A stretch of 64,000 nt of DNA, taken from Eledone cirrhosa (Eukaryota). This document shows, piece by piece, positions 2,090-57,089 of the stretch. The stretch is from positions 61,380,001-61,444,000 of the forward strand of contig OZ024745.1 of the NCBI GenBank assembly GCA_964016885.1. Direction: 5' to 3'. The notes under the pieces were generated by a model, which worked only from the letters and a program-made list of their open reading frames with translations, had not been told where the DNA came from and ran no database searches. Numbering within the stretch: position 1 is the first letter of the stretch; every line of letters starts with the position of its first letter. Both the position numbers and the translations under genes were made by a program.

Positions 2090-2398
<309 letters not shown>

Positions 2399-3345: not shown

Positions 3346-3381
<36 letters not shown>

Positions 3382-3493
3382 AATATATATAAAGAGTGGT
3401 GCGCTCATGCGCAGGAATATTATACAATAGTTTATAAGAGTGAATACCTTTAAAGACGATAAAAGAAGTAATGTACGTACACACACACACACA

Positions 3494-3563
<70 letters not shown>

Positions 3564-3699
3564 TATATATATATATATATATATGGTATATTTTGATTGT
3601 TCTTTCTCGTCCCGAAAGCCCGCTCAAACATGTGATTTTTGAACTGAGTTGTGTCTTTGTGTATTTTCCTGTCTGCAAATTAAGCTCCTCACAGCACAA

Positions 3700-4350: not shown

Positions 4351-4551
4351 TGTGACAACAAATGCAGACACTTCAGAATTAACATCAAAGATGTACCCAT
4401 GTCATAAGCAGCTGCCCAAAGATGTCATCACCGTACTATATACCTATGAGGCATGATGTAGTCGCTGAAACTCTACACAATGCAATCCGTAGAAAAGATT
4501 GCCCAGACAATAAACATATTAAAACTTACAGCAACGTGTAATATATATATG

Positions 4552-4609
<58 letters not shown>

Positions 4610-4612
<3 letters not shown>

Positions 4613-4658
4613 CACAGAGGAGACTGAGGTTGGCTGGACATGCTCACCGACATCCAGA

Positions 4659-4698
<40 letters not shown>

Positions 4699-5292
4699 TC
4701 TGGATGTCGGTGAGCATGTCCAGCCAACCTCAGTCTCCTCTGTGTCACTTTTGAGCTGACTTTTGGGATGCTCCCATACAGCTCTGAGTTTTTCATCCTC
4801 AGTGTATACTGATTAATGTTCAGAGCCATCCTCAGCATTCTCGTGTAGCACCCATCCACCATCTGAGTGAGTCTCTTGGTCAGTGTCCAAGTCTCAGACC
4901 CACACAGCAGCACAGACTCCACTACAGCAATGAAGAGGCGGATTTTCAGGTCTCTACGAAGGTCCGACTTCCACACCGATCTCAAGCTGTGACACGCCGC
5001 CCAGGCCTTGCTCTTCCTCTCAACCACATCTTCCACACCGATCTCAAGCTGTGACACGCCGCCCAGGCCTTGCTCTTCCTCTCAACCACATCATCTTCCG
5101 TATTCCCAATCTTTGCTCCCTTTGGGAGCCCCTACATGGACACACTAGAAGAGGAAGACCAAGGTTAACATATGTTGATGCCCTAAGGACAGACACTGGT
5201 CTGTTGGAGATGCAGGATATGGCAGCGATAATGAGGGACAGAGACCGCTGGAGAGAACTCGTCCATGGATCTCGGGAATTTTACCCGCCTTA
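4610..5292. mobile_element. Rearranged 5'-inverted copy of the RTE/RTEX-like LINE at 28478-29587, in (TA)n
   Basis: 4697-~5118 is the reverse complement of ~29032-29393 with an internal ~60 bp duplication; 5122-5292 matches 29417-29587 forward; 4610-4660 is an extra forward fragment. Confidence 0.9.
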
Positions 5293-5311
5293 GATAGATA
5301 GATATATATAT

Positions 5312-5626
5312 ACATAATATGAAAGAGTACTAGTGGAGTCTTCTAGTCAAAACCCCAATAAAATGCAGGCAAAACAGACCAGATATAATGATATAGGACA
5401 CGGAAAAGAAGGCATGTACAGTAGTGGAACTAAGCTGCCCAGTAGTTGCCAATATAGTATTGAAGATTGGCGAAAAGGAGAATATCTGTGTAGAACAAAT
5501 GAGGAATCTTCAAATACTCTATCACCTCTATCCTGACTTTAACTTCAGATTTATACCTGTGATTATCGGGATATGTTAGTAACTGCCTCAGTACAAATCT
5601 TGAGAACCAGAAAGAACACGACTAGT
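5312..5626 (+). pseudogene. Decayed Dong/R4 REL-endonuclease fragment
   Basis: Similar to reverse complement of ~8460-8790 (aaaaccccaataaaatgcagg...agaccagatat...agctgcccag). Confidence 0.8.
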
Positions 5627-11100: not shown

Positions 11101-12195
11101 TTTTGGTGGTGTTTTGTTCTTGTTAATATCTCTGCTATCCCCAAGATAATGCTTCACTGTCATTACTAAGGCATATAAACAGGCGTTGATTTGCCAAAAT
11201 GTTGCGGTTTTTATCCGTCGTAAATATTCATCCCCTATTTCGTCAATAACACGTAGTATTTCATTATTTGGTTTTTTATTCACCATTGTCATTTTAACAC
11301 GTTGAGCAAGAGAGATATTTATACATGAGTTAATTTCTCTCTGGAAGATTTCGTTGAGGGAAATTTTCAATTGTTTATACTTTTGATTATCAATATCGAT
11401 AGTATTTTCCACAACAGTCGAGGTAGACGCGGATGGTATACGTGGTGTCACATTTATTCGATTATTATTATTATTTCTTCGATTATTATTATTATCGATA
11501 GTGTTTTCCCCAGCATTAGAGGTAGACTTAGATGGTACAGGTGGTGTCAAGTTTCTTACAGGCATAGTTGTTTCAAGGCGCTGTTCGACCTGGCGGCTAG
11601 GAAGTCTAGTAGCATGGCGACCTGTAGCACGTGTTGTTGATTCCATGTTTGTTGTGGGGGACTTACAATTAATAATATTTATCTTATTTTTACGTTCAAC
11701 AAACGTCGCTTGTTGGCGTAATTGTTTCGCTGTGAAATAATTTAGCTCTGGGTGCATTTCGTCCCAGTGTAGCTTCATTCTATTCATATAGCCAATGGAG
11801 GGATTGTTTTTTGCCATTTTATAACAATTAAATAAATCATTATTAAGTTCGCAACTCCAAGAGAAATGCGATTTATAATTTCGGTTTCTTCTGTAGTTAC
11901 AACTGAATAAAGTTTGATTACCTTCCTTGTTATTTTTCTTCGATACTTCCTTAATTTTTTTGTTGATGTTGTGTTCAGCCATGCTGTTTGTAGCAAATCC
12001 TTGTAAAATGAATTATGTATTTAGTCGGATATCTCTACGAATTCGAATAAAAGGTGTCTTCAGAAGGGATAGTTAGAAGAATAACTAGTTATTCAACCTG
12101 GCTGTAGTTGTGGCATTACTGTCGGAGATAGTATTCATCTTAAATTTAATAAATAGTCTCCCACGCCAAAATATACGCCTGATCGCGTTGACTGT
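8164..12195 (-). mobile_element. Dong/R4-clade non-LTR retrotransposon family A, near full length, frameshifted
   Basis: Collinear ORF pieces 10966-11982, 10782-11066, 10255-10602 (NYRPIAC), 9274-10242 (WLDYRKAFDSVPH, GIFQGDSLS, FVDDLKL), 8389-9183 (CRLC..HVISSC, RHD, RPD..VEISCP REL); 3' end abuts (CATA)n. Confidence 0.93.
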
Positions 12196-20636: not shown

Positions 20637-20686
<50 letters not shown>

Positions 20687-20796
20687 TTAATATGCAAATG
20701 AGATTAATCACCTCATTTACACAGACGAGAAATGTATATATTCTCGCCTGTCTTCTAGTCCAGCAGTCGCAAGCGGGGGGTGAGGTGGGGGGTGGG

Positions 20797-20840
20797 ACCG
20801 TCCTGACGAAGGCCAGTTAAGCCTGAAATGCATAGACGGT
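20797..20840 (+). ncRNA. Type I hammerhead ribozyme, complete core
   Basis: ACCGTC-CTGACGA-AGGC cagttaa GCCT-GAAA-TGCA-TA-GACGGT: 6 bp stem I, 4 bp stem II, palindromic ATGCAT stem III. Confidence 0.9.
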
Positions 20841-20955
20841 TGTCCCCCTTGCTTCTGCTGGACATCACCAGAGGGCGCTAGCCCCCCCCCCCCCCCCAGG
20901 TGTTTGCATAGCTACGTCTTCCTAAAACCGTATTTCCTTGGCGATACGAAATATT

Positions 20956-29622: not shown

Positions 29623-30071
29623 TGTGGAACCAACCAACCGGAAATTTATAAAAACATTTTTTTAATTTTTTTTTTATTTTTAAATTTATAATAAATTGGA
29701 GTGAAAGCAACTGGTGCGTGTGTTTCTTATTGGCAACATGACCCTCCCAAAGCATAACAATATCGGTTTCAACACACGTTTTCAGATAAAGAATCTTGCT
29801 AAACAAATTCAGAAACGATATATATATATATATATATATTGTTATACTTTGGGAGGGTCATGTTGCCAATAAGAAACACGCATCAGTTGCTTTCACTCCA
29901 ATTTATTATAAATTTAAAAATTAAAAAAAAATTAAAATTTTTTTTTATAAATTTCCGGTTGGTTGGTTCCACAACCAGACGGTTGTTTATATATATTCCC
30001 AAAGAATAACAATATCGGTTTCAAAACACGTTTTCAGATAAATAATCTTGCTAAACAAATTAAGAAACGAA
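29623..30071. mobile_element. Forward/inverted/forward 3'-end copies of the 24620-25360 PLE around (TA)n
   Basis: 29623-29818(+), 29838-29997(-) and 29998-30071(+) match parts of 25143-25360. Confidence 0.9.
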
Positions 30072-30096
30072 ATATATATATATATATATATATATA

Positions 30097-31480
30097 CACA
30101 GTTCAAGAGTAACCAATCTTAAAGAGAGAGATGGAGATAGGAGAGGAGAGATTGGTGAATTAGTTAGAAGCCAAAGCGTAAAGGCATGTGCTCAATGTGC
30201 AATAGAAAGCAGCTAGGTGGGTTGGTTCATGCAGAAGTTAGGCGCGCAGAGCTGGAAATATTCATTAGTTAAGCAAAACAAGACCACAAATTTCACAAGG
30301 AAGACATTATTAAAAGATTGTCAACATATTTTAGTTTGATGTAAGGAATGTAGAGAATAATAATAATATTAATAATAATAATTGTTTCTACTTTAGGCAC
30401 AAGGCCAGCAATTACCCAGTACATTACTGGTACTTTATTTTATCGACCCCGCAAGGATGAAAGGCAAAGTTAACCTCGGCGGGATTTGAACTCAGACTGT
30501 AAAGGGACGTAACTATCCTAGAAAGCATGGCGTCCAACCCTCTACCGATACTGCCAATATTACTAATATGCCAATATTACTAATAATAATGTCCGTTTAC
30601 AATTGTTTCGCTACTCCATATAATATTTCTGGATCAGATGACTATATATCATTATTGATCTGGTTGAGTTGAAAATAATTAACATATTTAAAAACAGAGC
30701 GGCTCATCGGAACTTCAAAGGAATATAAATTAAAATAAGGAGAGAATGTTACATAATGTAATGTTCCATATATTGGTATTTCACTATGGTGTCCTGGTTG
30801 TGTCAATTGTCAGCCATAATCAAGCAGTATTCATCTGTCGAGGCTGCATTGTGTGAGATCTGCCTATGGGTAACAAGATGGCCGCCAAAGGACATATTTA
30901 GCTTACTAATTAGAGGGTGGTTTCAGGGGAAGTAACTCCCCGAGAGATTAGAAATTGTGGGTAGTTTATAGTTAAGTGCTAATTAAAAAATGTTTTAATT
31001 GAGAGACAATGTAGGGGAGGTAACTTATAATTATCTAAGTTAGTTATAGCTATTTAACTTATTAGCTACAAGTAAAAATGGGGCTAGACGACTATGTTGG
31101 GTCAAATATTCTATTGGCGAAGGAATTAGCCCTTCAATATTGACAGCTAATAGTTACCTCCGTTCTATCGTTAATCGGTAGAGGTCGTGATAGAGTTATG
31201 TAATATGCTTCGGTAATACAGAGATCACAAGATTTTCTTCGTCCATTGAACGGTTGGGCCCTAGCTACGATATCCCATTTTAGTGAGTGTTCAATGTTGC
31301 TTAATTTAAGGTTTTTAATGAGCCTATCTAGAGATGTCGACAATTGTAAACGGAAATTATTATTATTAATATTATTATTATTATTCTCTACATTCCTTAC
31401 ATCAAACTAAAATATGTTGACAATCTTTTAATAATGTCTTCCTTGTGAAATTGGTGGTTTTGTTTTGCTTAACTAATGAG
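30097..31480 (-). mobile_element. Penelope-like element fragment with inverted terminal copy and long-stem-II HHR
   Basis: ORF 31134-31343 LKWDIVARAQPF..CDLCITE..INDRTEVTISC resembles a PLE endonuclease C-terminus; 31340-31480 is an inverted copy of ~30262-30606 lacking the SINE; HHR-like 30596-30713(-) with CCGATGA core. Confidence 0.75.
30380..30560 (-). mobile_element. SINE (18565 family) nested in the PLE
   Basis: Reverse complement of 18565-18765; absent from the inverted arm. Confidence 0.88.
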
Positions 31481-31494
31481 TATATATATATATA

Positions 31495-31743
31495 TCAGAA
31501 TGGATGCAGTAAAAACCAATTAAACTATTACTCACCAGAGTACTCGATACTTGGGTTAGTAGATTGGGTAATATGAAGGATTCGGGACCCCGACGACTGA
31601 GCTTCTGCCGTTTCAACAGCTAGACCCGAACTGAATCGCCGGTGTTCTGGCGGCGAAAATAGCAGGCGTCAATGGGGATTCGGGGACAAAGACCAAGCTG
31701 TTGAAACGGCAGGAGCTAAGCCGTCGGGGTCCAGAATCCTTCA
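31495..31743 (-). mobile_element. Fold-back insert with HHR 3' half and branched stem II
   Basis: IR arms 31574-31621 / 31696-31743; related to 23165-23368 and 62567-62690. Confidence 0.8.
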
Positions 31744-31751
31744 CACACACC

Positions 31752-31799
<48 letters not shown>

Positions 31800-31839
31800 C
31801 GCACGCACGCACGCACACACGCACGCGCACGCACACACG

Positions 31840-31994
<155 letters not shown>

Positions 31995-32785
31995 TTTTAA
32001 ATATAGATTTAGCGAGAATCGCATTTCGGCGGGTAGAAAAGGCGAAACGAAACGCAAAAATCAGAAATAATGCAGGCAAGCGCTCCATAGTTAAAACACC
32101 AGAGCTAATCAATATGTTAAAACGCCATACAAAACTGAAATAGTGGTCAAGAAAGCATCAACCACCTAAGCCAAAAACCAAATCAAGCTAAGCAGGTCAA
32201 AACAAAATAAATGATAAAAAACACAGACCTGGACCCATTGGAATTGATGTTAAAATCCAAATGCAGGGTTTCTATGACACCTAAATCAAAATACTGTCTG
32301 CTTAAAATTATAAGCTTTAGGTATAATGATCGAACAAGGAATATCACGTTATCAACAGGTATTTTGCTCTGTACCAAATTTTTGTGAATGACACAGAGCC
32401 GCGTAAAAGCACATGTGGAATTCACAAGGGGAAAACCTCCAGATTTTGGCAAATGAATATATATGAATATATATATATATATTATTTTTAAAATTTGGAG
32501 GTGAATAACAGTTATTATCGAGTGGCTGCTATTTGCAGTATAGCGATATGGTTGCACTTACCAATGAAACGGTCGTAAATACCTGGATAAAATCCCTTTT
32601 TTTAATGCTTACCTGTGCTTTTTCTTTTATTCTTTATATTACAAATTGAACGTGATTTACTAACCACATTCTTACAAACTTGTGGAGTTAGCCTAACCGT
32701 AGGTTAAAAACCGTGCAAGAAACTGGATTTAACCACGATGGATCTTAACCACGAACTGGATTACGGTAAGCAATTTTCTGCTTCC

Positions 32786-32819
<34 letters not shown>

Positions 32820-32829
<10 letters not shown>

Positions 32830-33120
32830 AGATCAAAAGATGGTTAAAAGAGTTCCATTAAATATCATCATGCAATAACATTTGCGTTTTCGTCAGATAA
32901 AATAGGGAGACATGATATGAAGTTAAAACACACAGACGAAAACGCAAATGTTATTGCATGATGATATTTGTTTTTGAAATGCGCATAATAAAATACATGG
33001 AACTCTTTTAACCATCTTTTGATCTTATATATTATTTATACTCCAGTCCTACAAATTGTAGAGTGCTTCTTCTCCGATATCTGCATTGCTTTATTGTACT
33101 ACAATAAAACTAAATAAAAA
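32820..33120 (+). mobile_element. TA-flanked fold-back insert with HHR split between the arms
   Basis: Left arm (-) carries TATTTTAT-CTGACGA; right arm carries stem II-GAAA-TGCGCA-TA-ATAAAATA. Confidence 0.8.
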
Positions 33121-33159
33121 ATATATATACATATATTCGCAGTTCTTCTGCTTTATATA

Positions 33160-33235
<76 letters not shown>

Positions 33236-33240
<5 letters not shown>

Positions 33241-33410
33241 AGAAAAAGAGATGAAATCGAAAATGCAACTGGAGTCTTATTTTTTTAAAAATATATATAT
33301 TTAAAAAAAAATAAGACTCCAGTTGCATTTTCGATTTCATCTCTTTTTCTTTATACTTTCACTCGTGTAGGACACCTCGGTTATTTTTCATTTTGTAAAA
33401 AAAACCTCAC

Positions 33411-33420
<10 letters not shown>
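33236..33420 (+). repeat. TA-flanked fold-back insert (~55 bp arms plus unique 3' tail)
   Basis: 33236-33290 is the reverse complement of 33300-33354. Confidence 0.85.
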
Positions 33421-33448
<28 letters not shown>

Positions 33449-33453
<5 letters not shown>

Positions 33454-34570
33454 ATATTTAGAAACACACAGATACATGCGGACACACACATATACATGAA
33501 TACATCCGCACCCAACCGTGAGTTAAGGGTGCCAACTTCACCGATGCTGCTCAATGAATGACTGGGACAGACCAATCCGGTTGAACCAGACTGAACCAGT
33601 ATCAGAGTTAAAAATACATTATGAAGAGAGAAGAAACATTTAGATATAATTAGTAATAAAATGTATCATACCTAAACTGCTCCTAGATTCCTCGACTACG
33701 TAGTTTCGTGGCATAAACAAAAACAATACATCATAAAAATATAGAGTCCTTGCGAGGTCTGCCAACTTATCAAGAGGATACCTCATTTTACTAGTCTCAA
33801 GAACGCGTCTACACGACGTGAGAAAGAATCCCAAAAGGCGGAGGGGGAGATAGTCACGCGATATAACGGTCGAGAAACAGAGCTAAGCCTCTTATAACCC
33901 CGAAGAAAATACCACGGAGGCGGAGGGGGTATTTATATCGAAGCCGTAGAAGAGGTGGTGAAGGAGGCGAGAAGTATGGGTAATGGAAGCTTTCCAGCAG
34001 TCCCCACACCTCAAAGATTGCTCAACCAGAGGGAGTTATTAACAATATATTTAGAAACACACAGATACATGCGGACACACACATATACATGAATGCATCC
34101 GCACCCAACCGTGAGTTAAGGGTGCCAACTTCACCGATGTTGCTCAATGAATGACTGGGACAGACCAATCCGGTTGAACCAGACTGAACCAGTATCAAAG
34201 TTAAAAATACATTATGTATCTGTGTGTTAAAAATACATTATGTATCTGTGTGTTTCTAAATACCGCCTCCGTGGTATTTTCTTCGGGGTTATAAGAGGCT
34301 TAGCTCTGTTTCTCGACCGTTATATCGCGTGACTATCTCCCCCTCCGCTTTTTGGGATTCTTTCTCACGTCGTGTAGACGCGTTCTTGAGACTAGTAAAA
34401 TGAGGTATCCTCTTGATAAGTCGGCAGACCTCGCAAGGACTCTATATCTTTATGATGTATTGTTTTTGTTTATGCCACGAAACTACGTAGTCGAGGAATC
34501 TAGGAGCAGTTTAGGTATGATACATTTTATTACTAATTATATCTAAATGTTTCTTCTCTCTTCATAATGT
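33449..34570 (-). mobile_element. 593 bp monomer in ~1.3 tandem copies plus ~310 bp inverted copy; non-coding, HHR-bearing
   Basis: 33449-33622 repeats at 34042-34215; 34263-34570 is the reverse complement of 33616-33923; TA flanks. Confidence 0.88.
34403..34501 (+). ncRNA. Hammerhead ribozyme with U3-A8 core variant (second copy 33685-33783, minus)
   Basis: TCCTC-TTGATAA-GTCGGCA...TGCCAC-GAAA-CTACGTAG-TC-GAGGA. Confidence 0.78.
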
Positions 34571-34600
34571 ATATATATATATATATATATATTTCATTTT

Positions 34601-34672
34601 CACCTGACGAGATCAGTGATAATCGATCATGGCTACACGATCGATCTATCTCTTATCGAAACATGTGTCGAT
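34601..34672 (+). ncRNA. Hammerhead ribozyme, long stem II, degenerate stem I; in insert 34592-34820
   Basis: CTGACGA-GAT..GATA ATCGATC..GATCGAT cTATC..ATC-GAAA-CATGTG-TC. Confidence 0.65.
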
Positions 34673-34816
34673 CTTTATTTTGTTACAAATACTCCGTTTC
34701 GTTTTACATCATCTAGCTGTTCCCATAAATGGAATTGGAGTTATACAAAAGCGTGGAGAACTTAATACTGCTAACAAAAATTTATTGGACCGTTTGCCAC
34801 AACCAATAATACACCT

Positions 34817-34904
<88 letters not shown>

Positions 34905-34910
<6 letters not shown>

Positions 34911-35715
34911 ATACTTGGGGAGGGTCATATTTGTGTAATATTGCCAGAATTAATAACAGAACACATTCACTGTTTGGTTGGTTTTCGCTTTTCGCTTCTA
35001 TGTCTTTTATATCGGTAATCTAATATACTCGGTCCTCAATGTTGCCATTGACTGACCGACGGTCAAAAATAATACGGATACAATATAGACACAAACACAT
35101 ATATATAGTTTGTCATAAATCTTTCGTTGCACATCTGCAACATCGTCAGTGGTGCTATTGTTTCTTCCTGTTGAATTGTATGGCTACGCCACTTTTATTC
35201 AGTCTGTCTATATATTTATTTATTTATTTGCTTGTTTGTTTATTTTATTTTGTCTTCTTTGCGCATGCGTTTGCGTGTGTGTATAGTGTTTTGTTTGATG
35301 TGTGATGTGTGTTCGTGATTGGGTGACTAATGTGTGTTTATGTGTTTGTTGTTATTGTGCTTGTGTATGTATTTATTTATTTATTTTATTTTATTTTATT
35401 TACTTATTTATACTTCTCTTAGGTCATTGTTGTTTGTTTGGGTGTTGTTGTTATTCCATTCATTCTTTCTGTTTAGTCTTGGTCTTCTAAATTCTATTTC
35501 ACTGGCCTCTCTGATTTGCCCAGCTGCTGGGTCATTTCTATGTTTAGATATTATTCTAATTTCTATGTTGTCTATGTTACCGTCATGTTGTTGTCTGGCA
35601 TGTTCGTATAGTACTGACCCGTTTTTTCGTCCTTTTAGTTCCCCCCAGTGTTGGTCTATCCTTTCACCTATGCTACGAGCTGTCTCACCTATGTATGTTG
35701 TTGTCATGTTTCTGC
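34905..35715 (-). mobile_element. Penelope-like element 3' fragment (GIY-YIG ORF 35408-35707, 3'UTR, HHR 35112-35153)
   Basis: YIGETARSIGERIDQH..SVLYEH..IREASEI..LNRKNEW; CTGACGA-T-GTTGCA gatg TGCAAC-GAAA-GATT-TA-TGAC; shares gaccctcccaa(a)gtataacaata with ~25281-25303. Confidence 0.88.
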
Positions 35716-35724
35716 TATATATAT

Positions 35725-36170
35725 AATTGAAAAAGTGGAGAATAACATGGTCAACAATACAAAAAAAGGAGATTTATTTACAGTCTAACAATTGTTTCAC
35801 TGATAGAGTTGTCTAAAAATCCCTAAACACTGAAAGTAGTGCCACTCAATTTAAAATACATGTTATCTCCATCATATTCTCAGTCTCTGAGGATATGAAG
35901 GAGATAACTTGTATGAGTGGCACTACTTTCAGTGTTTAGCGATATTTAGACAACTCTATCAGTGAAACAATTTTTAGACTGTAAATAAATCTCCTTTTTT
36001 GTACTGTTGACCATGTTATTGTCCACTTTTTCAATTTTATTACTCCAAGATAAACTTACATAGGAATACAGTGAAATCATAAACTCGTCATCCACGTAAA
36101 CCTCTTGTTGAGTCATACAACACCGTACGCTAAAACTATTCACAACCTCTAACGATATTTTGTTATCCTC
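35725..36170 (+). mobile_element. Fold-back insert (arms ~35725-35883 / 35887-36037) with HHR at 35881-35981
   Basis: CAGTCT-CTGAGGA-...CTCTATCAGT-GAAA-CAATT(G/T)-TT-AGACTG. Confidence 0.8.
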
Positions 36171-39748
<3,578 letters not shown>

Positions 39749-42595: not shown

Positions 42596-42856
42596 GTTAA
42601 ACCACTGGGAGTGAAGAACCCCTAGCCCTTGTCAGGGCATTCTTCTAGGAGAAGGCATCTCAGGAAACTGGGTTAACTCCGACATAAAACCTGCGGCTCA
42701 GTAGTTACCGATGATGTTGATCTTTTCTTCTTTTCGGGTTATAACTACTGTCGCTCAGAGAGTGGGATTGGCTCAGTGCACAGTCTTTCCTCACTTTAAA
42801 AATATTCGTCACGCACAGGCATTGCACGAGTGCATTAATAATTATTAATAGTGCAC

Positions 42857-42904
<48 letters not shown>

Positions 42905-45900
42905 TTTTTTTTTTTTTTTTCCAAATATAAAAGAGATAATTGGCAATTTAGGTTCTGGAACAAAAAAGATCATTGGCAATAAGGGCAGGGGCCCCAGGTT
43001 ATCACAGCCTGGGCCCGCTCGTCATCGTGCCATTGTAATAGAGCCAAACAAGGCATTTAGTCTTGGCTGCTGGAACGTACGGACGCTGCTTGACAGGGAT
43101 TCCTTGGGGCGTCCTGAACGAAGGACCGCTCTTGTTGCAAAGGAGCTTCGACGTTACGATCTTGACATCGTGGCTTTATCTGAGACGAGGCTAGCTGGAG
43201 ATGGCCATCTTACGGAATTTTGTGGAGAATATACATTCTTCTGGAAAGGAAGAGATGAAGGAACCAGAAGAGAGGCTGGGGTAGGATTTGCTGTTAAGAC
43301 TGTGCTTTTGAACAAATTAGAAGAATTCCCAGTAGGGATTAGTGAGCGTCTTATGTCCATGAGAGTTCCGCTGGACAGGGGAAGATATGCTACCCTGGTG
43401 AGTGTGTATGCTCCAACTATGAGTTCTGTCGATGAGAAAAAGATGTCTTTTGACCATGCCTTGAAAGGTGTTTTAAGAAATATCCCTCAGGCAGACAAAG
43501 TCATCGTGCTTGGTGACTTTAATGCTAGAGTGGGTAGAGATTTTAACACATGGAATGTAATCGGAAGGCATGGGGTGGGAAAGTGTAACAGCAATGGTAT
43601 GCTCCTGCTGCAGATGTGTGAGGAGCTGGATCTGTGTTACCAACACCATGTTCCAACAAAAGAACAAATTCAAGACCACATGGATGCATCCTGCATCTAA
43701 GGAATGGCATCTTTTGGACTACGTCCTAGTCAGGATGCGTGACAGACAGGATGTGCAGTGTGTTCGTGTTCTTCGTGGAGCTGAGTGCTGGACGGACCAC
43801 CGCCTGGTACGCGCAAAAGTGAAACTAATCACTAAACGTAAAATCCGGGCTCCTGGTGTTGCCCTGCCCAAAAGATTGAATGCTGCTCGTCTTAAGGATA
43901 AAAATGTGAAGAGGACATTGGAAGAAGAGATGCAGGCTGCAGATCTTGGTGAGGATTGGCCGACCCTTAAAAAGTCGGTTTATGATGTAGGCAGGCGTGT
44001 TCTGGGATTGGCGCAGAGGAAACATCAGGACTGGTTTGATGAGAATGATGTACATATAGAAGACTTGTTGGCTGATAAGAGGCGTACTCTGTCACGCTAC
44101 TTGACGGCAAAACCACAGGAGAGGAATACGTTGCATGAGGAACTCAGGGATGTAAAATCACGTGTTAGGCGGAGTCTTTCTCAGATGAAGGATCAGTGGT
44201 GGAGTGAGAAGGCTGGTGAGATACAAACTGCGTCTGATTCCAATAACACAAAGCTGTTGCACAGTCTCTTGCGTGAGGTTTATGGACCGTCTTCTTCTCT
44301 GGTGACACCGCTTCGCAGCAAGGATGGCAAAGAACTTCTTCGTGACTCACAAGGAATTCTACGAAGGTGGCGAGAGCACTTTGATGATCTTTTGAATCAG
44401 CCGTCTGTCGTCAGTGAAGATTTCCTCAATCTCATTCCAGAAAGTCCTGTGAAAGTAGCTCTCGCAGAACCTCCGACGCTTGTGGAGGTTGCAGTGGCTA
44501 TTTCGAAGCTGAACAGTGGAAGATCTCCAGGTATGGATGGCATACATGCTGAGCTCCTACAATATGGTGGTGAGAGACTCCTGCAACATCTTCACTCTTT
44601 GTTTGGCAGGATATGGGCTAATGAATCCGTACCTGAGGACTGGAGAGATGCAGTAATGGTGGTCTTGTACAAGGGAAAGGGTAACAGGAACGATTGTGCG
44701 AACTACAGAGGTATATCATTGCTTTCTGTCGTAGGGAAAGTTTTATGTAGGGTGCTTCTGGACCGTCTGCTGACACACATTGCAGATTGTGTTCTTCCTG
44801 AAAGTCAATCTGGTTTTCGTGCTGGACGCGGCACTACTGATATGATCTTCTCAGCTAGACAGCTCCAGGAGAAGTGCATGGAACAAGGCTTGGATCTGTA
44901 TCAGGTTTTTGTCGATCTGACAAAAGCTTTCGATACTGTTAACAGAGATGCATTATGGAAGGTTCTCCAGAAACTTGGTTGCCCTGATAAGTTCCTTGCT
45001 TTAGTTAGGTCTTTCCATGACGACATGAAGGCTTGGGTTAATGTCGGGGGTAACATGTCGGAGCCTATCTCAGTAAAAAATGGAGTGAAGCAGGGGGATA
45101 TTCCAGCACCGACCCTGTTTGCCATATACTTTGCAATGGTTTTCTGTATTGCATTCAGGAATTGCGAGCATGGTGTTTACATCCGATATCGAACCTCAGG
45201 CAGCATATTTAACATCAGGCGCTTTGCTGCGAAGACAAAAGTGTTTACATCAATCATAAGAGACCTCTTGTATGCAGATGATTGCGATCTTGTAACGCAC
45301 ACAGAGAGTGATATGCAGCACATTTTGAATGCATTTTCTGACGCTTGCACTGCCCTAGGTCTGACTGTCAGTCTCAAGAAAACCGTCGTCATGTACCAAC
45401 CTGCCCCAGGTAAGCAGTACACTGAACCAAACATCTATGTGTATGGCAAACGACTTGGAGTGGTTGATCAGTTTGTCTACGTGGGAAGCACTGTCAATCG
45501 ATACAGCAACCTTGACAGTGAAATCTCACTTAGGATTAGGAAAGCAAGTGATGCTTTCGGAAAGCTAGAAAGGCGACTCTGGGATCGGCGAGACATATGC
45601 AGGAGGACAAAGGTAAAGGTGTACAGGGCATGTGTGCTCTCTTGTCTTCTTTATGCCTGCGAGACCTGGGTCACATATCGACACCACCTTAAGCAATTGG
45701 AGCGTTTCCATCAGATGTGTCTCAGACGGATCCATGGCGTTCACTGGAGGAACCACATCAGTGATGTCGAGATTTTGGAAAGCTCTATGTGTGACAGTAT
45801 AGAAGCTCTTGTGCTTAAGCAACGACTCCGTTGGAGTGGTCACCTTGCCAGGATGAAGGATTCTAGAATACCAAAACAACTCTTTTATGGAGAGTTGGTT

Positions 45901-46552
45901 AAAGGAAAACGACCGCCACATAAACCAAAAAAGAGGTATAAGGATTCCTTGAAAGCCTCTCTGAAAGACGCTAACATCTCTGCTGATACATGGGAGAATA
46001 TTGCTGCTGATCGTAATAAATGGAGAAAGACTGTATATGAGGGAAAAGTTGCCTTTGAGGCATCTCGAATCGCATACGAGAAAGTAAAGCGGGATGTGAG
46101 GAAGGCATTGTTGTTGCACTTCCAGACGGCGAGGGTCCTCCTATGGTGCTGACATACGGCGTATGTGCGAGACTCTGCCTAACCAAAGCTGGACTCGAAA
46201 GTCATCTTCGCAGTCATAAAGTAAGACTAGTGGTTGACTACCAGGCTGCTGTTGGAGATGCTACTCATCATGCTTGCCAAACATGTGGTAGAGAATGTAA
46301 ATCAGCAGGAGGGCTCAAGCGACATGCAAAAGTACGCGAACTCCAACCACAGTCGACTATTCCCAGTGAATGTTTTGGTTGCCGACTCTGTGCAAGACAT
46401 TTTAGATCATTGGCTGGGCTAAAAAGCCACATTCGATCGCATCGCTGTTAGTTGCTATCGTGTGTGTGTGTATATATGCTTGTTTGTGCGTGTGTGTGTA
46501 TATATATATATGTATATGTATATTATTATTGTTGTTGTCGTTATTATTATTG

Positions 46553-46831: not shown

Positions 46832-49800
46832 TCAGATATTCAGGACGTATCGGAGGGTTCTTGCTGTTCCAAGCAAGCATGCCTTTTGAAGCGTTCCAAA
46901 AAGCGTGAAGGGGCCGATTTTCTTTAACCATCCCTGGAAACTTTTGGAGATAGTCCCCAGTGCGCCTATGACAATCGGGATCACTTTGACTTCATGGCAG
47001 TTCCAAATCCTTTTCACCTCCCACTTTAGGTCCTGGTATCGGTTAATTTTCTCCCTCTCCTTCTCTTGCACTCTCGTGTCGAACGGGCAGGCCACATCCA
47101 CAATCAGGCACGATCTTTTTTCTTTGTCCACAACCACCAGGTCAGGTCTATTGTGTTCCAGTTTTTTGTCCGTCTGTATCCTAAAATCCCACAGCACCTT
47201 CACCTGATTGTTCTCCATCACCGCCTCTGGCCTATGCTCATACCATTTCTCAGAATGTGGTAAATTGTTTACTTTGCACAGGTGCCAGTGGATCACCCTG
47301 CCCATCACATCGTGTCTCCAGCCCTTATAGTGGGTCTGGGCTAGGTGTTTACACTCGGACACAATGTGAGCCACAGTCTCCTCTCTCTCTCCACAGATCC
47401 TGCACAGTGGGCTAGCCTCCTCCTTGTAGATATGGTGCTTCAACCACTTCGTTTTGAGGGCCTGCTCCTGCGCAGCCATTAGCATTCCTTCTGTAGCCTT
47501 TTTGAGGTCTCCTCTTCTCAACCAGTTCCATGTCTGTGGATCTCTAAATTCAGTTTTCTCAAAGAAGGTACTATGAAGGGATTTTCCCTTAAGGCTGCTC
47601 TTCCTCCTTGATGTTATTTCCTCCTTGGACATCCCCTGGCCTACTGTCCCCTCCTTCAGTACAGTTCTGAGCATTGGCTCCTTACTATAGGTCACGTATT
47701 TGTATAGGTTGTTTTTCTCCATCTGAACACAGTCCTCTATGCTGATAAGACCTCTTCCACCCTCAGATCTCCTTAGGTAGAGTCTATCGACATCACTCCT
47801 CTTGTGGAACATGTTGTAGGTAGTCAATAGCTTCCTAGTCTTCCTATCCATTTCTTTTTGTTCAGCAACATTCCATCTCAGAATTCCCGCACTGTACCTA
47901 ATAATAGACACAGCTCGGGAATTTACTGCGCTTATGGCATTTCTGCTGTTCAGATGTGACTTCAATACGCTCCTTACTCTCCGAATGTATTCAGTTCTTA
48001 ACAATTCCTTCATTTTTTTGTTCTTTATGCCATCAGCCTCCAGAACGCCCAAATACTTGTATCCTTCCTCAGAGTCAATTTCCTTTATCATCTCACCTGT
48101 TGGTATCTGGATCCCGTTACTTCTGCTCAACCTACCCCTCTTCATCACAATGACTCCACATTTACCAATACCAAACTGCATACATATATCACTGCTGAAA
48201 ATACGGACAGTGTCAACAAGCACATCCAACTCCTTCTCACTTTTCCCGAAGAGCTTAAGATCGTCCATGAAGAGGAGGTGATTGATGGTAAGCTCTCCCC
48301 TTCCCAACTTGTATCCTGCTCTCACTTTTCGCAGCATAATGGTCAAGGGCATCAGGGCAAGGACAAACAACAGAGGGGACAGGCTATCTCCCTGGAAGAT
48401 ACCTCTCTTGATCTTCACGCTTCCCAAGGATACTCCAGTTGATGTCAACTCTGTCTCCCAGGACCCCATACTCCTGCCTAGCAACTGTCTGATGTTATCT
48501 GCCACCCTGAAGATCTCCAGGCTTTTGGTGATCCAGGAATGAGGCACCATGTCAAATGCCTTTCTGTAGTCTATCCATCCCATGGCAAGATCAGTGTGTC
48601 TCCTCCTGCAATTCCCCATTACCATCTTATCAACAAGTAACTGGTCCTTTGTACCACGTGACTTCTTTCGGCATCCTTTCTGTTCGTCCGGTAACAAGTT
48701 GTTTGTGTGGAGGTGATGGTAGATTTCCTCAGACACAATGCTCGTCAACAGTTTCCACATTACGGACAGACATGTGATAGGTCTATAGTTGGTAACATCA
48801 TTACCCTTGATTCGGTCTTTCATTATCAGAACTGTGGTACCTTTTGTCAACCACTCTGGCACCTCACCCGACACCAAGCAGTCATTGAACATGGCCGTCA
48901 GCTTCGGGTGGAGGGATGTTAAATGTTTAATCCAATACCCCTGCACACCATCTGGGCCTGGTGATTTCCAGTTGGTTAGTTTTTTGGCCTGCCCCTTAAG
49001 AGTTTCAACTGTGATACTCAAATCAGTTTGTTGTTGTGCCTGCTCACCGATCTCCCTCTGTACTGTCTCAATCCACCCTGCCTGGACATTGTGTCTAACA
49101 TCCTGCTCCCATATTCCTCTCCAGAATGTTTTAGTTTGTTCCGCCCCAGGGATCAAGTCGTTGCCTCTTTCTTTCCCCTCAAGCTGTCCAAACAGCATCT
49201 TCTGGTTGTTGTCGAACATGCGGTTCTGTTTATACTGACTGACTCTGTTCTCGTATCGCCTGATTTTTGCACTCTTTGCTACAATGCGTTGCTTCAATTC
49301 CTCTATGATAATATTTAGCTTTTTACTCCTAGTTTTGTATTTTATTTCCAGTCTATTTTTAGTGCCTATGTTTTTTAGTGTCCCATTCAGTAGTGACTCA
49401 AGCTTTCCTATGTCATTTCTCATTTCCCCGATTTGCCCACTCAGTCGCTTCTTCCACCACGGCTCTGCTCTTTCTTGTCTGTTGTTTCCTCTCGCTTTTA
49501 TACCAAGTAGTTTCCTCACCGTATTTGCTGTTGCTTTGAGGATATTGTTGCACTGGTGAAGGCTCCTCGCCTCAAGGTATGGGATGACTTTGTTTACCTT
49601 AGCTGTTGTTTCTTTTAACTTTTTCCTGTCTACAAATCTTAGGTTCATAGGTCTCCCACTATCATTGTTCAATTCATCTACCACTAAATTTAGGATGTCA
49701 ACCGAATCTTGTCCTAGCCCGTCAGCATTCATCTCCTCAGTGGCCGTATCTCTGTTCCAGGTATTATTTATCTCAGTATTCAGATCATTGTCTGCTTCGG

Positions 49801-50092
49801 GTGGTTCCTCCGTTCTCAGGACCTCTTCACCTTCATTTCCCACTGGCTCGCTTGTCTGGCATACTACACCCGCCATCTCCAAGCCATTCTCTCTGCTCAG
49901 TTCCTCCAGTTCCAGCTCGCTTATCCACCCATTAGTTCTTATTACCCGAGCCTGCCCGGCCAATTTTTGTTCATCTAATTTAAATAAACCAATCTCGTTC
50001 CAGATGTTATGCATCCGTCTCCTGTAGCCCCTCTCCTTGGGGTCACTTTTCAGGTAGCATTGCATAACAGTTCTATTCAATTCTTTCGTCAA
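46832..50092 (-). CDS. Dong/R4-clade RT-REL polyprotein (element ~46757-50360), family C
   Basis: 1086 aa open; WIDYRKAFD, GIFQGDSLSP, FMDDLKL, CRIC..HIVSEC, RHD, RPD..DVACP; 3' end runs into (TAA)n; in-frame upstream ATG 50224 is separated by one stop. Confidence 0.95.
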   Translation of the reverse strand: MTKELNRTVMQCYLKSDPKERGYRRRMHNIWNEIGLFKLDEQKLAGQARVIRTNGWISELELEELSRENGLEMAGVVCQTSEPVGNEGEEVLRTEEPPEADNDLNTEINNTWNRDTATEEMNADGLGQDSVDILNLVVDELNNDSGRPMNLRFVDRKKLKETTAKVNKVIPYLEARSLHQCNNILKATANTVRKLLGIKARGNNRQERAEPWWKKRLSGQIGEMRNDIGKLESLLNGTLKNIGTKNRLEIKYKTRSKKLNIIIEELKQRIVAKSAKIRRYENRVSQYKQNRMFDNNQKMLFGQLEGKERGNDLIPGAEQTKTFWRGIWEQDVRHNVQAGWIETVQREIGEQAQQQTDLSITVETLKGQAKKLTNWKSPGPDGVQGYWIKHLTSLHPKLTAMFNDCLVSGEVPEWLTKGTTVLIMKDRIKGNDVTNYRPITCLSVMWKLLTSIVSEEIYHHLHTNNLLPDEQKGCRKKSRGTKDQLLVDKMVMGNCRRRHTDLAMGWIDYRKAFDMVPHSWITKSLEIFRVADNIRQLLGRSMGSWETELTSTGVSLGSVKIKRGIFQGDSLSPLLFVLALMPLTIMLRKVRAGYKLGRGELTINHLLFMDDLKLFGKSEKELDVLVDTVRIFSSDICMQFGIGKCGVIVMKRGRLSRSNGIQIPTGEMIKEIDSEEGYKYLGVLEADGIKNKKMKELLRTEYIRRVRSVLKSHLNSRNAISAVNSRAVSIIRYSAGILRWNVAEQKEMDRKTRKLLTTYNMFHKRSDVDRLYLRRSEGGRGLISIEDCVQMEKNNLYKYVTYSKEPMLRTVLKEGTVGQGMSKEEITSRRKSSLKGKSLHSTFFEKTEFRDPQTWNWLRRGDLKKATEGMLMAAQEQALKTKWLKHHIYKEEASPLCRICGEREETVAHIVSECKHLAQTHYKGWRHDVMGRVIHWHLCKVNNLPHSEKWYEHRPEAVMENNQVKVLWDFRIQTDKKLEHNRPDLVVVDKEKRSCLIVDVACPFDTRVQEKEREKINRYQDLKWEVKRIWNCHEVKVIPIVIGALGTISKSFQGWLKKIGPFTLFGTLQKACLLGTARTLRYVLNI

Positions 50093-50459
50093 GTTGGTTT
50101 AGGCCCCTTTCCTTCTTCTTCTTCCTCCAACATCAGCAGTATTTGGTTGACAGTCAGGTTCCTGCTGCTGAGCCAGGGGGCACCTGTTGGGTGAGAGTCT
50201 GTCACATGACGTTCTAGTCTCCATTTCACCGTTATTCGAACTGTTTATGTTCGATATTTAAACACTCTTATCGAGGATTGGCGAATGTATGGTTACATAG
50301 CCATCTGTGGATCCGCCATCCAACTTGGCCCTTGTGTGGCATTATCACCACGCTGTATACGAACACACATAAACAAACAAACACACAGGCAGAAAGGGCC
50401 CCAAAAATGAATAAGCATAAGTTTCATTGTAATGTAGTGTTCGAATGTCTGACTTAGTT

Positions 50460-53073: not shown

Positions 53074-53669
53074 GAAAAGGGTAAAGTCTACTGCAAAGAG
53101 ACCCACAGCAGCAACACCACCAACACCATCACCACCCACACCAGCACCACCATCACCACCACCGGCGACAACCCCACCGCCAACAATACCTTCAACACCA
53201 CCACCACAAGCACCAACATCGCAAACACAACAACAAAACACACACACCCAGCAACAACGACAAGAAAATAGCAGAACCACACCCCACCCCCAGAAAAACA
53301 AATGCACGGCAATAAACACACACAACAAGAAACTAATGACTTACATAATTGAACACACAGACATTTCACAACAGGACTACATAATACCAGCACCAATCAA
53401 AACGCCAACTAACATAAGACTGCTAAAAATAGCACAGAAACAATACACAAACATTAAAACGAAATTCCCCAACGCAGTTGGTGATTTCAGGGACCTAGGA
53501 GGAACCATCAATCGAAGAGTATATTCTTAGAAGAGCCGACGACCAGCCGAAGGGACGATTCAATGGTCCCTTCACCAGACGATCAAGTGAAAAGGGATGT
53601 AAAAACCATCCCTCCTCTACCAAAAGTACGGTAAGTGGTCTTTCCCATCTTTTCCACTCTATTTTAAAC

Positions 53670-56600
53670 ATGACCTCACTAAGAATAGGCAGCATAAATG
53701 CGCGTGGCTTGGGGTCGTCATGGAAGCAGGGTCACCTGCTCAACGACCTCAGGTCACTAAACATAGATGTAGTGGCCATCAGCGAGACCAGAATCTCCGA
53801 AGCACGGGCCTTCGCACCGATCTTCGGCGGCTACGATGTATACGCATCTCCCAGCCGTCCTGGATCGGGTGGAGGAGTTGCTGTGCTTTTTCGGAGAGGT
53901 TTGGATCTCGCCATACGGGCCATCTTCCTGGACCCAGAGGGTAAGCTGGTGGTGCTGGACGTGACCAGCGGAGACGGGCAAGCTTTCAGGCTAGTGGCCG
54001 TCTATGCCCCGACAGGAGCAGGGCGGCCTGATTTCTTCCGGCGTCTGGAGACCTTTCTTGGAACGTCCCGCTCTTTAGTGTTAGTGGGCGACTGGAACGG
54101 GATCTTAGATGCACGCTGGGACTGTGTGGGATTAGCGGATAGGGGTGGAGGGTGCAAGAGCCTCCCCAACCTGCTCAGGCGTTTTGAACTGTCTGACAGG
54201 TACCGATTGGATTTCCCGAATGTGCCAATGTGGACTTGGACAAACCGCATAGGGTCATCCAGATCATATCTAGATAGAGTATTTTGTAGGGAAATAGATA
54301 GGTCTAGCATAGGCTGTCCACAATTCAAGATAGTCAGCTACACGGACCACAAATTCGTGACCTGTGTGCTTGACTTAGATAGGCTTCATAGACGAGGACC
54401 CGGCTACTGGAAGCTAAACGCGTCCTTACCAGCGCGCAAGGCCTACAGAGACCGGATTAGCGAACTAGTTAAGCGGGCGTTGACGGGGGCCATCGTCAAC
54501 AACAAGTGGTGGTTTGCTCTGAAAAGAGCGATTAGAATAGAATCGATTAGGTTTAGTAAGGCTTTAGCAATAGAGAAAAATAGAGCAGAGGGAGAACTAG
54601 TTAGAAAATTAGACGAGGCGCTTAGCAAAGGCATTGCGACCGACGTGCTTGCGGCGAAATTGGCCCTTGACCAATTCTTCAATGCAAAGCACGAAGGCTG
54701 CGTTGTCAGAGCTAGGGTGCGTGCTCTCAGACACGAGGGGACGAAAGCCGTTCAATGGGCCCGAGTGGCGGAGGCGCGTCGTGGCAACAAAGCCACGATC
54801 CGGTCTTTGGTGGACCACGACGGGCGCATGCTACTCGACCCCGGGCAAATGTGTGAAGCTTTTCAGCGACACTTCGCTCAGCTGTTCGGGGGCAGCGGGG
54901 GGCCGGGTAGAGGGATGGACTTTAGTGTCTACCTCGACGGACTGCCGCGGCTCTCGGCCACTGAGGCGAAGTGTTGCGAAAAGCCGATAACAGCCGCTGA
55001 AGTACGGGAGGCAATGACTGGCTGCACAAGGGGTAAATCGCCTGGTTTGGATGGTCTGCCCTATGAACTTTACGTACAGATGCCAGACTTGTTCGGAGGC
55101 CTCTTGGCGGACGTCTACTGCAACTGGCAACAGAACGGGAGAATTCCCAGTTCTGTGAGCCGAGGAGCGGTGGCACTGCTGAGAAAGGATCCGAACAAGG
55201 GGGATAACATAGACAATTTCCGGCCCATAACTCTGCTAAACACAGAGTTTAAGATTTTGGCCAAGGTGCTAGCAAAGAGGTTGGCGCTTGTCGTTGGTGG
55301 TCTGGTGGGAGAGGCGCAGACATGCGCCATTCCCGACAGATCCATCCACGACAACCTCCACCTCATGCGATACATCGTAGAGAGGGTAGCTAGGGAACCT
55401 GGCACGGGTGGGTCCTTGATCAATTTAGATCAGTCGAAAGCTTTCGATAGGGTCGACCATCGTTACCTAGCGGCAGTCCTGAGGGCGGCTGGCTTTGGGC
55501 CCGTCTTCAGAGGCTGGATCGCTGCCATGCACAGCGACATCTGCTCTGTAGTGAGAGTGAACGGTCACCTGTCGGAACCGTTCAACATCATGCGCTCGGT
55601 CCGCCAAGGATGTCCCCTCTCGTCCCTCTTGTACGTATTGACTCTCGAGCCATTACTGCACAAACTGGAGACGTTGAGGGGAGTCCCGCGCGAACTAGGA
55701 TGCGGAAGATCCGTGTCAGCATATGCGGACGATGTCACCGTAGTGGTGTCGAACGCCAAACACATCGAGGCGATCGGCACTACACTAAGAGAATACGAAG
55801 CGGTGACAGGAGCAATGATCAACCAGGAAAAGTCAGTGGGCCTGCAGCTCGGCACCTGGAGAGGCAGGTCCATGCCGTCCAACAGCGTCGTCGGGCGCTG
55901 GACGGACGGACCGGTTAAATTGCTAGGGGTCTGGTTCGGTCCGGACCTCCAGACGGACAAAAACTGGGACGAGGTGACGAGCAGGGTGGCTTCTCTCACC
56001 CAGAAATGGGCGGAGAGGAAGCTATCCCTGAAAGGTCGAGCGGAGGTGGCTAACGCGTACATCGCGTCTGTCATCTGCTACCGCCTAACCGTCGTACCTT
56101 GTCCTAAGCCTCGCCTGACTGCGCTGGAGCGTTTGCTCTTTCGCTTTTTGTGGAAGGGACGTGCTCCGATGGTCAGGCGGTCCATCTGTTGTCAACACCC
56201 GCTACGTGGAGGGCTGGGCATGCCGTGGCTGATGATGCGCAGGCACGCGCTCAGGCTACGACATCTCCACCTCTTCCTCGACGGTGATCAGGTGTGGTCG
56301 CCGTTTGCTAGACGCGTTTTTCCCCAGCTCGTTTCCTTGACGGAGCTGCAGTCCTGGGTCAAGCGAAGACCGAGAGGGAGCGCCTGGAGACTGGAATGTC
56401 TTCAGGCGCTCACAGCCCTCGACCAATCGGGCAATGTGATCGGTGGAAACTCCACCTCGGCGTTCTATAGAGGATTAGTGGAGGGGAAGAGCGACGACGT
56501 ACTTGGGGAAACTCTAGGCGTCGACGAAAATCAACTAGCCAATCTCTTCGGAAGAACTTTCGGGCCAGGGCCTATGGACAACTTCCAGAAATCTCTGGCC

Positions 56601-57089
56601 TGGCAGTGCTACCGACGAGCCTTGCCAGTTCGGGATAAACTCTACAGGCATGGAGGTGCCGTCAGCCGGGCATGTCCGAGATGCGCGCAGGGCGACGAAA
56701 CCGTCCTGCACGCACTCGTCCAGTGTCCGAAAATTGCTGACTTGTGGGTTTATGTCGAACACCTGCTGTCGCGTTTAGGACGGATCCGGCTATCATCTGA
56801 GTCCATCGTGAGGATTGCCCCGCCCTCCTCCTTTAGCCGGGAAGGGCAGGCAGTTTTTATCTGCCTGGTGGCCATGGCGAAAGAGATAGTATGGTGGACA
56901 CGTTTGAAAGGGCTGAAGACGAGCACTTACCTCTTCGGTGATGCTCTGATTGACTTTTTCAAATTTCATTTGAAAAGGAAAATCAGAGTAGAGAGGGAAG
57001 TGCTCTCTTCCCAGCATTTTGTTGAAAGATGGGTGAGAGAAGCAAGAATGGCCCGAGTGAATGGGCCTACTCTGAGCATATATCTGTAA
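53670..57089 (+). CDS. Tx1-clade ORF2 (APE endonuclease, RT, C-terminal zinc finger), intact; element 51331-57340
   Basis: SINARGL, VYAP, GDWN, YLDR, TDH, YWKLN, SPGLDGLP, DQSKAFDRVDH, VRQGCPLS, AYADD, CPRC..HALVQC; (ATT)n on both flanks. Confidence 0.96.
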   Translation: MTSLRIGSINARGLGSSWKQGHLLNDLRSLNIDVVAISETRISEARAFAPIFGGYDVYASPSRPGSGGGVAVLFRRGLDLAIRAIFLDPEGKLVVLDVTSGDGQAFRLVAVYAPTGAGRPDFFRRLETFLGTSRSLVLVGDWNGILDARWDCVGLADRGGGCKSLPNLLRRFELSDRYRLDFPNVPMWTWTNRIGSSRSYLDRVFCREIDRSSIGCPQFKIVSYTDHKFVTCVLDLDRLHRRGPGYWKLNASLPARKAYRDRISELVKRALTGAIVNNKWWFALKRAIRIESIRFSKALAIEKNRAEGELVRKLDEALSKGIATDVLAAKLALDQFFNAKHEGCVVRARVRALRHEGTKAVQWARVAEARRGNKATIRSLVDHDGRMLLDPGQMCEAFQRHFAQLFGGSGGPGRGMDFSVYLDGLPRLSATEAKCCEKPITAAEVREAMTGCTRGKSPGLDGLPYELYVQMPDLFGGLLADVYCNWQQNGRIPSSVSRGAVALLRKDPNKGDNIDNFRPITLLNTEFKILAKVLAKRLALVVGGLVGEAQTCAIPDRSIHDNLHLMRYIVERVAREPGTGGSLINLDQSKAFDRVDHRYLAAVLRAAGFGPVFRGWIAAMHSDICSVVRVNGHLSEPFNIMRSVRQGCPLSSLLYVLTLEPLLHKLETLRGVPRELGCGRSVSAYADDVTVVVSNAKHIEAIGTTLREYEAVTGAMINQEKSVGLQLGTWRGRSMPSNSVVGRWTDGPVKLLGVWFGPDLQTDKNWDEVTSRVASLTQKWAERKLSLKGRAEVANAYIASVICYRLTVVPCPKPRLTALERLLFRFLWKGRAPMVRRSICCQHPLRGGLGMPWLMMRRHALRLRHLHLFLDGDQVWSPFARRVFPQLVSLTELQSWVKRRPRGSAWRLECLQALTALDQSGNVIGGNSTSAFYRGLVEGKSDDVLGETLGVDENQLANLFGRTFGPGPMDNFQKSLAWQCYRRALPVRDKLYRHGGAVSRACPRCAQGDETVLHALVQCPKIADLWVYVEHLLSRLGRIRLSSESIVRIAPPSSFSREGQAVFICLVAMAKEIVWWTRLKGLKTSTYLFGDALIDFFKFHLKRKIRVEREVLSSQHFVERWVREARMARVNGPTLSIYL

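Follow-up and report, generated by a model that had tools for sequence, protein, structure and literature searches.

A non-coding 593-nucleotide tandem element with a U3-A8 hammerhead and a Penelope-like insertion footprint

Natural hammerhead ribozymes with a U3-A8 core pair were reported in 2011 (Perreault et al., PMC3088659), in an account that also cites an activity result for U3-A8 (Przybilski and Hammann 2007) and describes pseudoknots between stem I and stem II in ~40% of representatives. Cercyon, a Penelope-like element (PLE) of Schistosoma mansoni, is described as carrying ~1,300 U3-A8 hammerheads, heterogeneous and mostly single motifs with a short helix I, an enlarged helix II of 7 to 8 bp and a palindromic helix III region, with opposite-strand pairs lying 100 to 700 bp apart; the same source gives a dimer model of cleavage via the palindromic stem III (Cervera and de la Pena 2014, PMC4209133). 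The U3-A8 core by itself is therefore already known and is not new.

Three further bodies of work describe elements of related design. Metazoan non-LTR retrozymes are non-coding tandem units of ~170 to 400 nt with one canonical type I hammerhead each (Cervera and de la Pena 2020, PMC7229834), a G+C content under 45% and a proposed dependence on PLEs (PMC7229834; Li et al. 2026, bioRxiv 10.64898/2026.07.22.740005). The EN+ PLEs (Penelope/Poseidon, Neptune and Nematis) form partial tandems and head-to-head inverted arms with a tail at one end (PMC8557442, PMC3846280), target microsatellites, including (TA)n, and end ~80 to 90 nt past the hammerhead cut (PMC8557442, PMC3846280, PMC11167929); their tail, of 30 to 40 nt, is the distance between two internal reverse-transcription start sites (PMC11167929). 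The non-autonomous Chlamys elements, such as MRC1, are PLE derivatives with multicopy head-to-tail insertions, in which canonical hammerheads are generally missing and the 3' end is like that of the autonomous partner (PMC8557442).

The element described here was found in a 64,000-nucleotide stretch of Eledone cirrhosa DNA (the window). It shares the U3-A8 pair, PLE context and stem design of Cercyon; unlike Cercyon, it has a defined non-coding unit, of which at least 6,796 nearly identical cores were counted, with a helix II of 59 nt, an 8-nt palindrome and a possible pseudoknot. In that candidate pseudoknot, the sequence flanking stem I on its 5' side would pair with an internal loop of a long stem II, which also sets it apart from those of Perreault et al. 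It resembles the retrozymes in organization and G+C content (42.8%) but differs from them in its length of 591 to 595 nt, its U3-A8 core, its 59-nt stem II and its clear PLE tail and inverted-arm signature. Unlike the EN+ PLEs, whose insertion features it shares, it has no open reading frame (none of 90 codons or more) and a tail of ~163 nt; unlike the Chlamys elements, it showed no 3'-end homology to an autonomous PLE in the fetched loci or by targeted patterns. The literature searched, mainly open-access papers, gave no account of this family, of an equally long tail or of a counted one-arm-per-site rule, and supplementary motif lists of published surveys could include similar long-stem or U3-A8 families. 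What is new is the combination of a long unit, a long tail, a long pseudoknot-capable stem II and a very high copy number.

From the non-coding 591- to 595-nt unit, the thousands of copies, the tandem and head-to-head arms in (TA)n, the two fixed 3' ends and the structurally conserved U3-A8 type I hammerhead, we conclude that the element is very probably a non-autonomous PLE, equivalent to a large non-LTR retrozyme.

Layout of the insertion

The insertion occupies positions 33449-34572 of the window (1,124 bp) between two (TA)n tracts, and its arms lie head-to-head, joined at their truncated 5' ends. Unit positions (q) follow the 593-nt unit found at this locus, q1-593 being the reverse complement of 33449-34041. 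The features are as follows.

33236..33416, no strand: separate neighbouring insertion made of two short family X arms, which correspond to the 3' end of an autonomous PLE; longer copies of family X bear a compact U3-A8 hammerhead, and the family is a candidate helper
33417..33448, no strand: left (TA)n target tract
33449..34216, minus: long arm of 1.3 units (q419-593 and then q1-593), with its 3' end at end site 2
33449..33613, minus: tail (q429-593), the ~163-nt stretch that separates the two end sites; a long hairpin precedes site 2
33689..33778, minus: hammerhead copy 1, with core UUGAUAA at 33767-33773 and a predicted cut after the C at 33694
33753..33785, minus: putative pseudoknot of copy 1, UGAGGU (33780-33785) with ACCUCG (33753-33758), conserved and with no two-sided change
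33930..33937, minus: TATAAATA minority variant, followed by GC-rich boxes (CCCCCTCCGCC) of conjectural promoter role
34217..34262, no strand: junction filler of 46 nt, assembled from short segments that derive from the vicinity of both end sites and including a 26-nt duplication
34263..34572, plus: short inverted arm (q119-428) whose 3' end is end site 1, which lies 80 nt beyond the predicted cut
34401..34433, plus: putative pseudoknot of copy 2, UGAGGU (34401-34406) with ACCUCG (34428-34433)
34408..34497, plus: hammerhead copy 2, with stem I at 34408-34412/34493-34497, core at 34413-34419, GAAA at 34479-34482, palindrome CTACGTAG at 34483-34490 and a predicted cut after 34492
34573..34592, no strand: right (TA)n target tract

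A preliminary description of this locus gave the unit length correctly as 593 nt but took the two hammerheads for a tandem, whereas they lie on opposite strands. The ~1.3-mer that it noted exists as the minus-strand arm and contains only one hammerhead, the second being in the inverted arm; the inverted Penelope-type architecture had been missed. The arms differ from each other at only 3/310 nt (the tandem part, at 3/175), so both hammerhead copies come from one insertion and, as that description held, are not independent. Its reading of the unit as copied from a multimeric or circular template is supported.

It had also placed a TATA box, TATAAATA, upstream of the hammerhead. The position is right, but the argument fails, since only 13 of 57 family copies have this sequence; TATGAATA stands in 36 of the 57, and TATAAATA is absent from the majority sequence of all three sister subfamilies. 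Two CCCCCTCCGCC boxes are nearly invariant across subfamilies, and for these we can only infer a promoter role. A possible splice donor, AG/GTATGA, lies at q371, inside a conserved hairpin.

Core, stems and folds of the hammerhead

Both copies read TCCTC-TTGATAA-(59 nt)-GAAA-CTACGTAG-TC-GAGGA, with stems I and III and the GUC site as first described. They have an N3 U G A N N8 A core with a Watson-Crick 3-8 pair, GAA, A15.1-U16.1 and H17, in agreement with the earlier assignment to type I hammerheads with an intact 3-8 pair. Positions 30000-38000 of the window gave 95 Rfam matches at E<=5, none of them to a hammerhead family, in keeping with the preliminary view that searches miss U3-A8; the novelty that it attached to a rare pair was overrated, natural cases having been published (PMC3088659, PMC4209133).

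Genome counts were made as exact pattern matches in the 3.0-Gb genome, with reversed patterns as the control. The core pattern of the family (family A) gave 6,796 matches and the stem III pattern, which includes a sister subfamily, gave 7,458; both reversed controls gave 0. Other copies had been proposed as the place to look for fixation of U3/A8 or for contrary CUGAUGA cores, and U3-A8 was present in 6,796 of 6,821 family A cores and C3-G8 in none. Twelve variants at position 3, all retaining A8, and 13 at position 8 compare with 9 at the unconstrained position 7. Because this free position is equally fixed, the fixation of U3-A8 in family A reflects descent and says little else. The pair was also found in 74 of 75 distinct intact copies, subfamilies included, taken from loci picked without regard to core variants.

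A pattern combining the family's stem III with a short stem II and C3-G8 had 0 matches in the genome. Two matches to the 5' flank with C3-G8 were both decayed copies of another family. As no C3-G8 member of the clade was found, the 3-8 compensation stands relative to the general consensus and is not covariation within the clade. Compact-stem II relatives were likewise rejected: all 5 matches were internal deletions, and a looser pattern gave 5 matches versus 3 in the control, 2 of them being one duplicated old insert of another family.

Folding gave stem II as a single unbranched 59-nt hairpin with internal loops, not the branched stem first proposed. On 34 hammerheads, a subset of the 75 copies chosen to represent clusters, 97% of cells pair, versus 34 to 48% when the partners are shifted. 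Both sides of a pair have changed in stem I (C-G/U-A), in stem II (U-A/C-G) and at two pairs of the stem III palindrome. The number of two-sided-change cells and the covariation score exceeded those of all 500 shuffles, while the counts of pairs and of pair types (two of the five measures) did not rise above them; the shuffle control ignores relatedness, so related sequences can beat it. Seen across four subfamilies, these compensating changes in stems I and II, together with the three palindromes of stem III, are better support for function than the fixation of U3-A8.

Stem III takes the form of three recurring palindromes, CTACGTAG, CTGCGCAG and CTGTACAG, and most of the 100 listed of 131 matches to a pattern for other stems III read CTGCGCAG or CTGTACAG. 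Two such palindromes can make a 10-bp duplex with a computed energy of -14.3 kcal/mol, in line with the dimer model of PMC4209133. UGAGGU, which immediately precedes stem I, can pair over 6 bp with ACCUC(G/A) of the stem II internal loop; this helix is 98% paired with one-sided changes only, and may form a conserved pseudoknot.

For the motif alone, the hammerhead fold lies ~1 kcal/mol above the free minimum. With downstream sequence included, the lowest-energy fold is inactive and ties up both strands of stem I, a GAGG/CCUC hairpin capturing the 5' strand and the 3' half being drawn into a long hairpin whose end is site 1 (z -3.5). In every subfamily, hairpins are predicted ahead of each of the two end sites; only 3 of their 58 pairs have changed on both sides. 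From these models we infer a possible switch between an active and an inactive fold.

Family size and insertion footprint

The first 100 core matches fell into ~52 insertions when grouped by eye, which suggests that family A comprises ~3,500 insertions genome-wide. Tandem spacing is mostly 591 to 595 nt, and the largest tandem has up to 8 unit-sized segments in a single insertion (locus L111). Across 21 insertions, the divergence of units was 0.38% inside one arm, 0.49% from arm to arm and 2.5% from one insertion to another, implying a young family in which one type of template serves both arms and donors are many. Three sister subfamilies are 77, 76 and 75% identical to family A.

Near-identical copies of window positions 33455-34041 were present at low depth in four sequencing runs labelled as other organisms (X5, X6, X14 and X19), and the data of 16 other organisms contained 10 to 34% of the words. 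Contigs on the unit in the four runs had a depth of 2 to 8, several of their differences were family majority letters and none lay in the core, and some ended in unrelated loose ends. We do not take these copies as evidence for horizontal transfer; they are probably trace contamination.

The arms combine fixed 3' ends with scattered 5' truncations, and partial tandems occur with head-to-head 5'-truncated arms, as in PLEs. The 3' ends lie at q428 (site 1) or q590-593 (site 2), 163 nt apart. Among 30 distinct two-armed insertions of family A, 27 had one arm per site, 1 had both arms at site 2 and none had both at site 1, the remaining 2 having another end; one arm per site was thus seen in 27 of 28 (P ~1e-7). 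Single arms ended at site 1 in 16 cases and at site 2 in 7. In the older sister subfamilies, 21 of 35 insertions obeyed the rule, 4 had like ends and 10 were decayed or had another end. TA stood on both sides of 28 of the 30 two-armed insertions. An in vitro PLE study reports no strand difference in start-site use (PMC11167929).

No pile-up of 5' ends was found at the predicted cut, neither by script between q336 and q366 (2/30 loci) nor by eye, which placed ~5 of 98 ends at the cut among 100 listed of 216. At one locus (L135:1977-2100), a family A arm is joined straight to a family X insert with no TA spacer, through either nested insertion or co-insertion.

The enzyme that moves animal retrozymes has so far been backed by co-occurrence and phylogeny. 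In family A, the footprint of PLE insertion is itself visible in young copies that number thousands, and the family's value is as a test system; the one-arm-per-site rule, easily scored with a 163-nt tail, is a sharp prediction for the two start sites of the PLE protein.

Role of cleavage, candidate helpers and neighbouring elements

If the element is a non-autonomous PLE, its tandem copies would be transcribed into multimeric RNA and cut by the hammerhead at the predicted GUC site, a reaction probably aided when two units pair through their palindromic stems III and by the pseudoknot between the stem I 5' flank and the stem II internal loop. The product would be RNA of unit length, linear or circular. 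A reverse transcriptase/GIY-YIG protein borrowed from a PLE would nick both strands of the (TA)n tract and begin one cDNA at end site 1, 80 nt beyond the cut, and the second at end site 2, a further 163 nt on. If the template is a circle or a multimer, continued copying would give the arms of more than unit length, joined at their truncated 5' ends. U3-A8 would be an old working substitute for C3-G8 that the whole clade inherited.

Several observations count against this explanation: the absence of a pile-up at the cut site, the inactive lowest-energy fold, the core mutants shared in two tandems, the failure to find a sequence-matched autonomous element and the pseudoknot's lack of two-sided change. 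In the two tandems, each a separate insertion, adjacent copies carry an identical broken 3-8 pair, so a single hop may not require a functional core; the shared pairs reflect either no strict need for cleavage or later local duplication. The first three observations speak for a non-autonomous PLE that keeps the hammerhead fold mainly for protein binding or folding, cleavage being weak, protein-assisted or dispensable and the uncut multimer being the template, an alternative that differs from the preferred explanation only in the role of cleavage. Also in its favour are the anole PLE, in which hammerhead mutants had no effect on in vitro insertion and cleavage needed protein (PMC11167929), and the figure of 1/9 cleaved for Xenopus dimers (bioRxiv 10.64898/2026.07.22.740005). 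We nevertheless regard it as doubtful: the catalytic positions are retained, and the stem III palindrome has been rebuilt in three versions across subfamilies ~25% apart, which is what dimer cleavage would select.

Family X is a candidate for the specific helper that mobilizes the 593-nt element. At two loci (L238, where it occupies 1917-5400, and L206), its RT/GIY-YIG frame continues into 1 kb of 3' sequence, at the end of which stands CCTT-TTGAAAA-GCAGAAGAACTGC-GAAA-CCGG-TA-AAGG, a compact U3-A8 hammerhead. This pattern had at least 11,288 matches, with U3-A8 in 99 of the first 100; C3 variants numbered 43, all with A8. The Neptune/Nematis label that we give to family X follows from a linker motif, as described in PMC8557442, and not from a tree. 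The family is autonomous, young and abundant, and it shares with the 593-nt element the rare core, the (TA)n target, a pyrimidine-rich site 1, TTTCTA near site 2, a cut-to-site 1 spacing of 79 versus 80 nt and the one-arm-per-site rule (15 of 16 insertions). Its identification as the helper is nonetheless tentative and, in our judgement, unlikely to be correct, given that local alignment with the unit scored no better than shuffles in five of six comparisons (8/100 in the sixth), that its tail is 61 nt as against 163 nt, and that it is not the sole young autonomous family with a TA target, at least one more being present. The 3' region of family X also has repeats of TGGCGCGAAA and CACGTG. Family X and the 593-nt element's family hold ~18,000 U3-A8 cores, so counts based on CUGANGA can overlook many of the hammerheads in a genome, up to a large share.

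A second young autonomous family lies next door, a Neptune-type family with a C-x4-C-x2-C linker, a C-terminal GIY-YIG and a minimal C3-G8 hammerhead (fragment 35411-35773, minus, to 34907). It has open frames of up to 1,047 aa, an asparagine-rich ORF insert, a tandem unit of ~4.1 kb and 27,294 first-look candidates; we rejected it as a homologue, the sequence that it has in common with the unit being only microsatellite-like. No autonomous element matching the unit's sequence was found among the fetched loci or by targeted patterns. A junction pattern gave 2,369 matches, nearly all of those listed belonging to the 591-nt subfamily, a profile search of 206 fetched sequences gave nothing new among the matches listed, and Pfam gave no match for PLE proteins.

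Spread at the DNA level as a satellite or foldback element with a fossil hammerhead is very improbable, for the tandem arrays and inverted arms are only superficially like satellites and MITEs, and the idea is contradicted by 3' ends that are fixed and asymmetric (with scattered 5' truncations, and unlike terminal inverted repeats), by the dispersal of the copies and by the covarying RNA structure.

Returning to the preferred explanation, a non-autonomous PLE equivalent to a retrozyme, a more elaborate joint reading, improbable as a whole, would have a retrozyme clade caught using PLE machinery. One protein dimer would prime each DNA strand at its own fixed RNA site, without exception, the two sites being different and separated by 163 nt; the RNA would toggle between two states, a U3-A8 hammerhead activated by the pseudoknot and an inactive fold presenting site 1 to the enzyme; the helper would be an autonomous U3-A8 lineage; and the ~18,000 such ribozymes in this one genome would escape CUGANGA searches.

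Other hammerhead-like motifs were seen in the window and in the fetched loci. A canonical type I hammerhead at 20803-20834, within 20680-20950 (plus), has a 7-bp stem I, CUGACGA and a palindromic TGCA loop; it lies downstream of ATGCAAAT, which we take to be an octamer-like motif, and has decayed relatives in L204 and L205. To the right of the element, 34604-34672 (plus) is a decayed motif with CUGACGA, a long stem II and GAAACATGTGTC, similar to a long-stem C3-G8 motif at L135:563-652. A third U3-A8 hammerhead (L242:1495-1540 and L243), with UUGAUAA, a GGAG/CUCC stem II and a CAAUUG palindrome, sits inside one old, segmentally duplicated inverted insert. A C-terminal fragment of another PLE-like endonuclease at 31137-31406 (minus) is followed downstream by a long-stem hammerhead-like motif that ends near an (ATT)n tract (30595-30720, minus). 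The TA-rich cluster that holds the element also contains a small two-armed insert at 32822-33040, and at least 8 of the fetched loci contain relatives of it. Repeats make up most of the window, and long non-LTR retrotransposon-like reading frames lie at 8392-12012 (minus), 42852-46149 (plus), 46835-50098 (minus) and 53499-57086 (plus).
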